Source: a virus | Lineage: Duplodnaviria; Heunggongvirae; Uroviricota; Caudoviricetes | Virus record (IMG/VR): IMGVR_UViG_2869947659_000010 | DNA: 18,637 nucleotides | Direction: 5' to 3' (one strand) | Shown here: one piece after another, positions 1-9,000 of the stretch | Numbering within the stretch: the first letter of the stretch is position 1 | How the letters are laid out: each line of letters begins with the position of its first letter | Program-made: the position numbers

Positions 1-3000
1 TTGGAGTCATTACCTAAATTCCTGGCGGAAGTGCGTCAGCACACCTGGTCATCCGGTACCAACGGTGTGGTGGCTGCAACGTTCTCACTGCGTCTGAAAG
101 GCAAACCGGTGTCCTTTGTGGTACCGCTGGCGTTTGTGAAAAATCTGGATAAGACACTTACCGTGAATACCGGTGCGCTGCTGACAATGTCAGTCAGTGC
201 CAACGGGGGAATGCCGCCGTATAAATACGCCTGGAAGAAGGATGGTCAGCCGGTTGACGGGCAGACGACAGACACCTTCAGTAAGCCAGGTGCGCAGTCC
301 GCTGATGCGGGGAAATATACCTGCGTGGTGACCGATTCGGCAGAGAAAGCACAGAGTGTGACGTCTGTTGAATGCACCGTGACAGTGAGCGCAGCTGCCG
401 GATAAGGGGATGGGTCATCATGAAAAAGGATCTGAAAACGCTGGCGCTGGCCAGACTGTCAGGGTTTCGTCATAAAACGGTGAAGGTGCCGGAATGGGGG
501 AATGTCAGCGTGGTGCTGCGGGAGCCTTCGGCAGAGGCCTGGTATCTGTGGCAGGAAGTGCTCAATGGTGATGGAGAGGATGACGATACCCTGTCGGTGG
601 TGGCGAAAACCCGCCGTAACCTGGAAGCGGATGTGACGCTGTTCTGCGATGTCCTGTGTGATACGGACCTGCAGCGGGTGTTCACTCCGGACGACCGTGA
701 GCAGGTGCTGGCCGTCTATGGTCCGGTACATGCTCGGTTGCTGCGTCAGGCACTGGAACTGATCGCTGATGCAGAGTCGGCCAGAAAAAAGTAGCCCGCC
801 CGGAAATTCGCTTTCTGATGCGACTTGCGCTCCGTCTGGGGCGCACCTTATCCGAACTGCGCCACAGCCTGAGTGCGAGCGAGGCGATGATGTGGATGGA
901 GTTCGACAGGATATCCCCGCTGGGTGATGAGCGCGGGGATATCCGTAATGCACAGATCGTGAAAGCGGTTTTCGGGGCACAGGGGATGAATGTTGCACTG
1001 AAGGACGTCATGCTCTGCTGGGGCGAGGATGAGGATAAGCCGGAGGTGGATCCGTTTGCGGCGCTGGAAGACGCGCTGAGCTTTGCAGCACAGTCATGAA
1101 TGATGAGAACCGCTGAGGCGGTTTTTTTACGCCCGGAGAAAGGTGAATGGCGACGTTACGTGAACTGATTATCAAAATTGTAAGCTTCCGGGGAACTCAT
1201 ATTGACGCGTTTTTCAGGCGCGCGTCATCGGCGGCGCATACGAACGCTCGTGGTTTGATAACGGTTGATTTATTTTGTTGCACAGAGGCGATCGCCAGGC
1301 AGGTACCGGAGGCGGGCTCTGAAGTACTGAGTAGCGTGATCGCGTCAGGCCGCGAAGTACTGACTCGGGGATTAATTGCAGGTGATGATGTACTGACCCG
1401 GGAATGACTCCGGGCTGATTCAGGTTCTTATTCGCTGTCAGCCCGCGTGGTTGCTGGTCTGGCTCATTTCCTGCCGTCAGGAGTTCAACTCCCGACTGCA
1501 GGTTATGGCCCGGTGCACGAACACCTGACGGCAGGTATCACTCACCCGGAGAAGGTAAATCCCTCAAGAGGCAGCAACTCTGCCAGTCGCTCCTCCGGCC
1601 ACTCCGGCAGACGCATCAGGACGTCTGTCAACCAGGCATGCGGCTCCAGACCGTTGCGTTTCGCGGTTTCCAGCAAGCTCATTATTTGCGCGGCGCGTTC
1701 TCCCGCCATCTGCGAACCGGCGAACAGCCACGATTTTCTGCCCAGAACCACGTTTTTGATGGCCCGTTCACACACATTATTATCCAGCGGCACCGCACCA
1801 TCTTCCAGGAAGCGGCTCAGTTCCACGCGATGAGACAGCGCATAGGCAATAGCTTTGTGTAATGCCTTTCCCGGAGAACATTGCGGTTCCTGCTCTTCAA
1901 GCCATGACCACAGTTCTTCCAGTATCGGACGGGCATAACGCTGTCGCCACTGGCGGATTTTTTCCACGGGGCGGCTACTGATCTTCTTCTCAAGACGGTA
2001 CAACCCCGCGATTTTCTTCACGGCTATGGCAGCCCGTGGATCTTTACTGATTTTATACAGGTCGGCGAAGCCCCTGCGGGCATGGGCCCAGCATCCGGCC
2101 AGCGTGATCTCCGGCACTTTGTTTGCCAGAGTCCGGTAAGCTTTATGTCCGTCGACAACCAGCGTCCCGCCCCAGCCCTGAAGCCAGTTTTCAGGATACT
2201 CATGGCTACGTCCGGTCCGGCAGTCGAAGCACACAACTGACGGTCCCGTCCTTTCTCCACTGACGTATGCCCACAGATAACCGGAGCAGGATTTACCGCC
2301 TTTCTTCGTGTTCAGGATCTTCAGGGTAGTCTCATCTGCATGCACCACCGGACGGTTTATCAACTCGCGATGGAGTAACGCCGCCAGGGGAGATAATGCG
2401 GCACCCGCCGCGCTAACCATGTCAGCCATCGAACTGACGGGCAGCCCGACATCTGAACGGGCAAAGACCTGTTGCTGGCGATACAGAGGCAGGTGGTCAC
2501 CGTATTTATTGATGATCACCTGTGCGATGACTGATGGCTCAACGGCACTTTTCGGGAGGATATGTGCCGGCATTTCACCGCTGAACACCTTCTGGCAACA
2601 GGGACAACTGTATTGCGGACGGACATAACGGTTCACCACAAAGTGAGCGGGAATATACTCCAGCTTTTCACTCACCGCATCGCGGATATAGTGCAGCGGC
2701 TCGTCACATTCAGGGCAATGGTCAGTGTCCGGCTGGATCATTTTTTCCACCCGTGGAAGATGAACCGGTAAGGGTTTGCGTATCGGGCGTGAACGGGACG
2801 CTTTTTCATCTTCTTCAGGGGATTGCGGGAGCAGTTTATCCAGATGTGCGGTAAGCGCGGCGATATTGGCATCAACATCCTCTTCGAATAGGGAGCGTTG
2901 CATACCAGCCAGCGTTTCACATTTTTTTCCGAAGCGCTGTTGACGAACCAGTTTCAGCATTTCTTCCAGAAGCTGGATGCGCCGGCTTTTCTCCAGTAAT

Positions 3001-6000: not shown

Positions 6001-9000
6001 GTGGAAAATCAGAGACGGAAAAAGCGGAAGACAGTTTTTCCCGGCTGCTGAAGCAGCAGAAAGAGCAACTGGCACTGGCGGGGCAGAATACAGAGCTGGC
6101 GAAGCTGAAATACCAGACTGCGCAGGGCGAACTGAAAACCCTGACGGAGATGCAGAAGCAGGAACTGCTGCGCAATGCGGCCCTGATTGACCAGCAAAAA
6201 ATCCGGGAGCAGGGTAATGACTCCAACTTACTGATAGTGTTTTATGTTCAGATAATGCCCGATGACCTTGTCATGCAGCTCCACCGATTTTGAGAACGAC
6301 AGTGACTTCCGTCCCAGCCTTGCCAGATGTTGTCTCAGATTCAGATTATGTCGCTCAATGCGCTGAGTGTAACGCTTGCTGATAACGTGCAGCTTTCCCT
6401 TCAGGCGTGATTCATACAGCGGCCAGCCATCCGTCATCCATACCACGACCTCAAAGGCCGACAGCAGGCTCAGAAGACGCTCCAGTGTGGCCAGAGTGCG
6501 TTCACCGAAGACGTGCGCCACAACCGTCCTCCGTATCCTGTCATACGCGTAAAACAGCCAGCGCTGACGTGATTTAGCACCGACGTAGCCCCACTGTTCG
6601 TCCATTTCAGCGCAGACAATCACATCACTGCCCGGTTGTATGCGCGAGGTTACCGACTGCGGCCTGAGTTTTTTAAGTGACGTAAAACCGTGTTGAGGCC
6701 AACGCCCATAATGCGTGCACTGGCGCGACATCCGACGCCATTCATGGCCATATCAATGATTTTCTGGTGCGTACCGGGCTGAGAGGCGGTGTAAGTGAAC
6801 TGTAGTTGCCATGTTTTACGGCAATGAGAGCAGAGATAGCGCTGATGTCCGGCAGTGCTTTTGCCGTTACGCACCACGCCTTCAGTAGCGGAGCAGGAAG
6901 GACATCTGATGGAAATGGAAGCCACGCAAGCACCTTAAAATCACCATCATACACTAAATCAGTAAGTTGGCAGCATTACCCGGGAGCAGTTGCGGTCCCG
7001 GGAAGAGACCCTGAAGAATGATAATGTGGCTGCTCGTGCATCAAATGAAGCGGAACTGCTGGGGTACGGGCAGGGAGAGCGGCTCCGTGAACGCATGCGG
7101 GAGTTGCAGCAGATCCGCGACAGTTTCCGCCAGAAGGATGCGGACCTTCAGTCTCAGTATCAGACCGGGGATATCAGTGAGGATTTTTACAGACAGGCTC
7201 TGGCACAGAACGCGCAGTATCTGAGTGAACGTCTGAAAGAGCAGGAAGCCTTTTATGCCGAATCGGATGTGCAGCGTGCGGACTGGCAGAAAGGGCTGCA
7301 GGAGGGATTCAGTAACTGGGTGGATAATGCGTCCGATTACGCCTCACAGGCAGCACAGCTTGCGACGGAGGGTATCTCAGGGATGGTGAATAACATCACG
7401 GAGATGCTGAACGGAAATAAAGTGGAATGGCGCAGCTGGGCCTCATCAGTGCTGCAGGAAATATCAAAAGTTCTTATGAATGCCGCGATTGTCAACGGGA
7501 TCAAGACGGCGGCAAACAGTATGTCCGGAGCGGGAGGATTTATCGGCAGTATTGGTAGCTGGCTGGGCGGTGCGGTGGCCAATGCAAAAGGCGGTGTGTA
7601 TACCTCGGCAAACCTGAGTGCGTACAGCAACAGTATTGTGGATACGCCCACGTACTTTGCCTTTGCAAAAGGGGCGGGACTGATGGGGGAGGCCGGTCCT
7701 GAAGCCATTATGCCCCTGACCCGGGCGGCGGATGGCTCGCTGGGTGTGCGAGCGGTGGGCAGTATGAACGGCAGTGCAGGTCTGGTGTATTCCCCGGTCT
7801 ACCATATCGCCATTCAGAATGACGGGACTAATGGCCAGATAGGGCCGGAAGCTGCGGGCAGCCTTGTGCAACTGATTGACCAGCGGGTGCAGGCGGTGAT
7901 GCTGTCCATGCGACGTGACGGAGGAATGCTGAGTGGCTGAGATAAAAACGCTGCATCTGGTCCCGCGTGAAGGGATGCAGGTGAGTGAGAAACCGTCGGT
8001 GGCGAGGGTACGGTTTGGTGACGGTTATGAACAGCGCCGCCCGACGGGACTTAATGCCCGACTGAAGACGTTTCAGGCGGTGTTCCGGGTGACGGATGAG
8101 GCGACCCGGCGATGGCTGGAAGAGTTTTTATCGTGGCATGGTGGTTACCGTGCCTTTTTGTGGCGACCGCCGAAACATAACCGGACGGTGAGGGTGGTAT
8201 GCCGGGAGTGGAGCGTCACAGATAACGCCAGGTACAGTGATTTCAGTTGTACGATTGAGCAGGTGGTGAACTGATGCAGGATATTCACGAAGAAAGTCTG
8301 AGCGAGTCGGTTAAATCAGAGCAGTCACCGCGGGTGGTACTCTGGGAAATTGACCTGACGGTGCAGGGTGGTGAGCGGTATTTTTTCTGTAATGAGCTGA
8401 ATGAAAAAGGGGAGCCGGTCACCTGGCAGGGGCGTAAGTATGAGGCATACCCGATTGACGGCAGCGGCTTTGAGATGAACGGCCGGGGCAGCAGTGCCAG
8501 ACCGTCGCTGACGGTGTCCAATCTGTTCGGTCTGGTCACCGGGATGGCGGAAGACCTGCAGAGTCTGGTGGGGGCCACGGTGGTCCGCCGCCGGGTGTAT
8601 GCCCGTTTTCTGGATGCGGTGAATTTCGTTGCGGGCAATCCGGAGGCGGACCCGGAGCAGGAGCTGAGTGACCGCTGGGTGGTGGAGCAGATGTCGCAGC
8701 TGACAGCCATGACGGCCTCGTTTGTGCTGGCTACACCGACCGAGACGGACGGGGCGCTGTTTCCCGGTCGTATCATGCTGGCGAACACCTGTATGTGGAC
8801 CTACCGCTCTGATGAGTGTGGTTACACGGGCGGGGCTGTGGCGGATGAGTTCGATAAACCCACCACGGATATCCGTAAGGACAGATGCAGCAAGTGCATG
8901 CGCGGGTGTGAACTGCGCAGGAATGTCGGCAATTTTGGCGGTTTCCTTTCCATTAATAAACTTTCGCAGTAAATCCCGATTTATGACACAGACTGAATCA

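Follow-up and report, generated by a model that had tools for sequence, protein, structure and literature searches.

The 18,637-nucleotide stretch analysed here (IMG/VR virus record IMGVR_UViG_2869947659_000010, hereafter the window) carries a lambdoid tail module in which positions 1147-7940 are occupied by a single tape-measure gene, H, split into three pieces by two complete insertion sequences (ISs), ISEc49 of the IS66 family and IS1. The reading that we favor, with a probability of about 0.93, is the stepwise IS-mediated decay of a cryptic lambdoid prophage of the HK97/Stx-phage type in a Shigella chromosome: the ISEc49 insertion is common to many Shigella genomes, the IS1 insertion in H came later, and a third element, also an IS1, truncates the upstream major tail gene V. 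The pieces of H and the two elements inside it are laid out as follows (positions are those of the window).

1147..1179, plus strand: H codons 1-11 (MATLRELIIKI), the same 11 codons as in intact E. coli alleles.
1172-1179 and 3946..3953: left and right copies of the 8-bp target duplication of ISEc49, TCAAAATT.
1180..3945, minus strand: complete ISEc49 (IS66 family), 2766 bp, with full-length 99.6% identity to annotated ISEc49.
3529-3858, minus strand: tnpA of ISEc49, 109 residues, open.
3150-3542, minus strand: tnpB of ISEc49, 130 residues, open; Pfam TnpB_IS66.
1542-3143 (1542-3107 with the RefSeq start), minus strand: tnpC of ISEc49, a 533-residue open reading frame (ORF).
3954..6212, plus strand: H codons 12-764; Pfam TMP_3 and Phage_HK97_TLTM match here.
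6204-6212 and 6981..6989: left and right copies of the 9-bp target duplication of IS1, CGGGAGCAG.
6213..6980, minus strand: complete IS1, 768 bp; Pfam Zn_ribbon_InsA, HTH_Tnp_IS1 and DDE_Tnp_IS1.
6650-6925, minus strand: insA of IS1, a 91-residue frame, open.
6228-6731, minus strand: insB frame of IS1, open.
6990..7940, plus strand: H codons 765-1080 and stop, the lambda-like C-terminal part; Pfam Tape_meas_lam_C.

Each element was excised in silico together with one copy of its target duplication, and the segments 1147-1179, 3954-6212 and 6990-7940 were joined. The resulting H gene is 3243 nt long, i.e. 1080 codons plus stop, and contains no internal stop codon; ISEc49 lies after codon 11 (codon 11/12) and IS1 after codon 764 (codon 764/765), at 71% of the length. 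Intact H alleles of E. coli have the same length (3243 nt), and in two of them both empty sites are exactly as reconstructed. Between the reconstruction and the allele of E. coli O157:H16 Res13-Lact-PEA12-26 there are 33 nucleotide and 5 amino-acid differences. A preliminary description of the locus had placed an IS66-family element 11 codons into H and an IS1 in its distal third, each with an intact duplication, and its coordinates and duplications proved exact. It had also anticipated that excision would restore one continuous frame of about 1083 codons ending in a lambda-like NDGTNGQIGP motif: the frame is indeed single and free of stops, and the string is found near the C-terminus of the reconstructed protein, but the length is 1080 codons.

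The reconstructed protein matches the Pfam families TMP_3 (E=5e-57), Phage_HK97_TLTM (E=2.6e-89) and Tape_meas_lam_C (E=5.5e-18), and the alignment proposed as a check in the preliminary description found tape-measure homology across the full-length ORF. Over the full length, H shares 97.6% and 96.7% amino-acid identity with the tape measures of Stx1a- and Stx2a-converting phages, respectively, and 52% with that of the HK97-like phage HK75. By contrast, alignment to the lambda-type H of phage DE3 and its relatives is confined to residues ~825-1080, with ~28% identity; as no similarity to lambda gpH was found over most of the length, but only in the C-terminal quarter, H does not qualify as a gpH orthologue. 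As judged from these alignments, H is a tape measure of the HK97/Stx-phage type with a lambda-like C-terminal domain, and at the level of homology its identity is settled by the Pfam matches and by near-identical annotated orthologues. The label 'gene H' is nonetheless right by position and function: H directly follows the G/G-T genes, with their -1 slippery site, and precedes the distal tail genes. The gene order V-G-T-H-M-L-K-I-J is that of lambda. In the Stx phages, HK75 and lambda the tape-measure gene is intact, whereas that of the window is interrupted.

The element at 1180..3945 displays the tnpA-tnpB-tnpC order and the IS66-type DDE transposase of the IS66 family (the 533-residue TnpC ORF matches Pfam DDE_Tnp_IS66, zf-IS66, LZ_Tnp_IS66 and DDE_Tnp_IS66_C), together with the 8-bp target-site duplication of that family, TCAAAATT being present on both sides. 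The 109-residue TnpA ORF has no Pfam match; its sequence is identical to a RefSeq-annotated IS66-family TnpA. The element was recognized as ISEc49 from its 100% coverage and 99.0-99.6% identity to at least 15 records annotated as such. IS66-family elements have terminal inverted repeats of about 20 bp that often start with GTAA. Here, the left end (GTAAGCTTCCGGGGAACTCAT) and the reverse complement of the right end (GTGTCGTTACGGGGAAGTCAT) match at 15 positions out of 21, with GTAA at the left only, and these same ends recur in all reference copies. The ends are shared by three ISEc49 copies from unrelated contexts, which are bordered by 8-bp duplications of their own (GAATGAAG, GTTAATGC and CTTTCTCT), and the chance expectation of an exact 8-mer repeat abutting the ends of the window copy is ~1.5e-5. 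TnpA and TnpB have the sequences of the reference proteins, while TnpC differs at 5 residues; ten substitutions separate the element from the closest ISEc49 copy, five of them being amino-acid changes in TnpC. The copies found in E. coli chromosomes and F-type plasmids resemble that of the window in length (2766 bp), tnpA-tnpB-tnpC content, ends and 8-bp duplications; what sets the latter apart is its insertion site, codon 11/12 of a prophage tape-measure gene.

The second element has the size (768 bp) and the ~23-bp terminal inverted repeats of IS1 (20/23 positions match), an A6C frameshift motif, TTAAAAAAC, at element position 305, as appropriate for the -1 frameshift between insA and insB', and the 9-bp target duplication of the IS1 family, CGGGAGCAG on both sides, for which the chance expectation of an exact 9-mer repeat abutting the ends is ~4e-6. 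IS1 is the most abundant IS in Shigella genomes. It is described as the main expanding IS of the genus, with variation from strain to strain (PMC7373316). Compared with IS1 of Shigella in general, the element itself shows no differences; its insertion site, however, is limited to a few assemblies.

The relative age of the two insertions emerges from a comparison with ten other complete or near-complete Shigella chromosomes that carry the junction ORF created by ISEc49, a frame of 86 residues (positions 1147-1407) consisting of H codons 1-11 followed by read-through into the element. In each of the ten, ISEc49 occupies the same base and has the same duplication, and an IS1 occupies the same site in V; the IS1 in H is absent from all of them. 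The 86-residue ORF occurs in ~715 public contigs and 993 collection blocks, under the names S. flexneri, S. dysenteriae and S. boydii. The IS1-H junction is present in few assemblies only: one partial junction protein is named S. boydii, the 763-residue ORF running from H into IS1 is found in a single public chromosome (NCBI CP026766.1, 4.68 Mb), and the right junction occurs, identical base for base, at contig ends in three independent samples (L015-L017). The arrangement seen in the window is absent from complete E. coli RefSeq genomes, in which the best matches are limited to the phage DNA, 58% of the window. The window comes from CP026766.1, apparently a Shigella chromosome.

Two of the chromosomes compared are those of S. 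boydii Sb227 (CP000036.1; PMC8767353) and S. boydii ATCC 8700 (CP026731.1; PMC9430107). Both share with the window the pocR-IS1-V' junction described below, G, T, the ISEc49 site and the genes M to J; unlike the window, neither has an IS1 in H. Over 3218 nt, the H sequences of Sb227 and the window are 100% identical. Because the H of Sb227 lacks the IS1 and because the IS1-H junction is found in few assemblies, the IS1 insertion must be the later of the two. The remnants differ in other respects: Sb227 has a 15-bp deletion in its own copy of ISEc49 (L005 10034-12784), and ATCC 8700 has the nonsense change Q487* in H. S. flexneri 6 and non-type-1 S. dysenteriae are grouped with Sb227 in clade S1/C1 (PMC7373316; PMC8767353), a mixing of named species that accounts for the mixed names attached to the junction ORF.

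The preliminary description had suggested that both insertions are recent, on the grounds of their intact duplications and the clean restoration of the frame. This holds for the IS1 in H but not for ISEc49, whose site is the same in the ten other Shigella chromosomes and whose junction ORF occurs in ~715 contigs; since ISEc49 is common to so many genomes, intact duplications are no sign of recency here. A genome published in 2005 already contains the older insertion. The uninterrupted allele to be looked for in related strains does exist in E. coli; all ten other Shigella chromosomes carry ISEc49. The flanking repeats could be recovered from independent assemblies, the right junction of IS1 in three and the junctions of ISEc49 in ten chromosomes.

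The damage extends beyond H. The left end of the window reads as follows.

1..15, plus strand: end of the third, upstream IS1 (768 bp; L002 5246-6013), an IS1 terminal repeat, inverted relative to the copy in H.
16..405, plus strand: 3' part of V, the major tail gene, reduced to its Ig-like C-terminal domain; Pfam Ig_3 and I-set.

Intact V of E. coli measures 717 nt, and the IS1 target, TAAATTCCT, corresponds to its nucleotides 327-335. In 4 of the 10 chromosomes, TAAATTCCT borders the V-gene IS1 on both sides, and genes for terminase, capsid and portal are found upstream. The remaining six resemble the window: pocR lies to the left of the IS1 and the duplication is missing. In the genome of the window, the left flank of the element, GCAGAAATC, comes from pocR and the right flank is TAAATTCCT, and beyond the IS1 lie the chromosomal genes pocR and cobUST, not head genes. 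A pocR flank devoid of duplication points to a later IS1-mediated rearrangement, which may have been an inversion or a deletion. The idea that the loss of H is the only defect of the prophage therefore fails, since a third IS1 truncates V and since pocR and cobUST stand where head genes are expected; with V truncated, pocR/cobUST on the left and the chromosomal gene yecD on the right, the 'prophage' is a tail-module remnant.

Note that the IS1 copies in H and V of this genome have opposite orientations and are ~6.2 kb apart, so that G, T and the 5' part of H would be inverted if the two recombined. The two copies differ by one base (99.87% identity to L002 5246-6013), and the copy in H is 100% identical to the V-gene IS1 of seven other Shigella genomes (8101-8868 in L003-L010). 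The suggestion of a likely rearrangement hotspot fits the locus, the neighboring IS1 having already taken part in a rearrangement.

The pattern of substitutions in H bears on what happened after the ISEc49 insertion. Among 11 Shigella copies of H, 8 sites are variable: 6 changes are missense, 1 is nonsense and 1 is synonymous. The nonsense change, Q487*, is present in two genomes (L006 and L009), ATCC 8700 and one other. Relative to the two intact E. coli alleles, the ratio of non-synonymous to synonymous divergence (dN/dS) of H is 0.057 and 0.097; under that purifying ratio, the probability of at least 7 non-synonymous changes at 8 sites is 1.3e-5, compared to 0.37 under neutrality. Small as the sample is, the direction is clear: these counts argue for neutral drift of H, selection on the gene having apparently ended with the ISEc49 insertion.

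We propose the following order of events. In a first step, a shared ancestor of many Shigella genomes would have gained an IS1 in V and ISEc49 in H. In a second step, the V-gene IS1 would have been rearranged in one sub-lineage, so as to be joined to pocR instead of the 5' half of V, probably by recombination with another IS1 that detached the head genes. In a third step, the line of descent leading to this strain received another IS1, which transposed into H at codon 764/765. Both elements in H arrived by ordinary transposition with duplication of the target, 8 bp for the IS66-family element and 9 bp for IS1. With H interrupted, no functional tape measure is expected to be produced and, V being truncated too, no tail could probably be assembled. 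Those frames that are still open (M to J, lom and the fibre gene) may be unselected leftovers that have so far escaped insertion.

Several points weigh against this scheme. The loss of tail production is read from gene structure. The head module of this genome may have been moved by an inversion instead of being deleted. Neutral drift is deduced from 8 variable sites, counted as sites and not as events on a tree. The source species is inferred from the identity to Sb227 and from the name of one junction protein. Finally, a shared ancestor assumes vertical inheritance, and lateral spread of an already disrupted segment would give the same pattern; such a spread would still leave ISEc49 older than the IS1 in H.

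It appears highly unlikely that a prophage competent in all other respects was hit recently and independently by the two elements, with the loss of H as its sole defect and of tails as the only consequence. This is what one would conclude from two complete elements with perfect duplications and open transposase genes, followed by open downstream tail genes. However, the ISEc49 site recurs in hundreds of assemblies from three named Shigella species, V is truncated by the third IS1, pocR replaces the remainder of the prophage, and copies of H interrupted by ISEc49 only have since acquired missense and nonsense changes.

Databases contain a 1086-residue Shigella 'phage tail tape measure protein' (P0018/P0021) starting with MTEDPCEDDFPVTTLKI. 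These residues are the translated right end of ISEc49, read from a CTG at 3903 that follows a TAA at 3900; the next in-frame ATG of that frame is at 4002. The 86-residue junction ORF is itself listed as a Shigella multispecies hypothetical protein. The disrupted H is thus annotated as intact in hundreds of Shigella genomes, and both the 1086-residue and the 86-residue entries are artefacts. That the CTG-started ORF is a real gene seems unlikely in view of the neutral substitutions, the nonsense change and the CTG as only start, and we rejected this reading.

It could still be argued that ISEc49 was fixed across the Shigella clade as a useful insertion, through the 1086-codon frame or through IS-driven transcription of J, lom, the fibre gene and the gp38-like adhesin gene. 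Were this true, a cell-surface or tailocin-like function would have been kept from a dead prophage, but we regard it as very improbable. Less probable still is the related proposal of co-option, according to which ISEc49 has been kept for its rewiring effect, either yielding a tape measure with a replaced N-terminus (the 1086-residue ORF) or driving the lom and fibre genes. Although the 1086-codon frame is open from the right end of ISEc49 into H in many genomes, in which it is annotated as intact, its sole in-frame start between the stop at 3900 and the ATG at 4002 is a CTG, its substitutions look neutral with a nonsense change in two genomes, and in this strain it has received a further IS1; moreover, V is also destroyed, and L, I or J is split at other loci. 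Least credible of all is an assembly artefact in which repeated IS copies were misplaced inside H: Shigella does contain very many IS1 copies (PMC7373316) and repeats often cause misassembly, but each duplication has exactly the length typical of its family, and the junctions recur in three independent samples (right junction of IS1) and in ten chromosomes (ISEc49).

Stepwise IS decay being the preferred reading, the locus is a case of the already known IS-mediated gene decay of Shigella and not a new kind of feature. Its import goes little beyond bookkeeping, but it is a clear worked example of layered decay, in which a rearrangement mediated by an IS and a recent insertion at the strain level were added to an old insertion that many genomes share, and its lesson is that the recency of an insertion cannot be deduced from intact target duplications. 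Being exact and widespread, the junctions ISEc49-H and IS1-V might be used as markers of the Sb227-like clade of Shigella, while the IS1-H junction could mark a narrow sub-lineage. The 1086-residue and 86-residue database entries are worth flagging as artefacts.

The other tail genes of the window are listed below.

420..794, plus strand: tail assembly chaperone gene G; Pfam Phage_TAC_1, E=1.7e-61; also called in L002.
785..791, plus strand: slippery heptamer A AAA AAG, just before the G stop, read from the sequence.
818..1099, plus strand: T reading frame, the tail assembly protein T portion of G-T; Pfam Phage_tail_T, E=1.3e-19.
7933-8274, plus strand: M, open.
8274-8972, plus strand: L, open.
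8983-9726, plus strand: K, open.
9624-10304, plus strand: I, open.
10545-14018, plus strand: J, open.

The T frame is -1 relative to G, and the heptamer is the expected site of the -1 frameshift that is predicted to produce the G-T fusion; the G/G-T frameshift signal has therefore been preserved in the remnant. M, L, K, I and J are all open reading frames, as claimed in the preliminary description, and their lengths equal those called in other Shigella loci. Further decay of independent origin is apparent in other genomes: J is split in L003 and L in L011, and I is called shorter (193 instead of 226 residues) in L003, L006 and L011.

Between I and J lies a 240-bp non-coding gap (10305-10544). 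It contains two GC-rich hairpins; a T-run comes after the second one, giving a terminator-like structure just upstream of J. A gap of equal size is present in an E. coli relative (L013 21740-21979), and an IS3-family element is found within it in the Shigella genome L004. A scan of the whole window with Rfam returned nothing at gathering thresholds.

An IS event of independent origin has struck the same tail module in a related prophage of E. coli MINF_7C (L001 1406-4242), in which an IS66-family element, ISEc22, splits G and leaves H intact. We considered this strain as a parallel case and rejected it, the element and the gene both being different.

On the right, at ~17699-18637, a minus-strand DinI-like gene is followed by a match to the chromosomal yecD of E. 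coli O104:H4, which places the right prophage boundary in the last kilobase of the window. Further upstream, the segment 14744-16808 forms a mosaic receptor-binding module: a tail fibre gene, encoding the N-terminal domain of prophage fibres, collagen repeats and, at the C-terminus, a Peptidase_S74 chaperone domain, and behind it an ORF whose N-terminal domain is that of T-even-type Gp38 adhesins.

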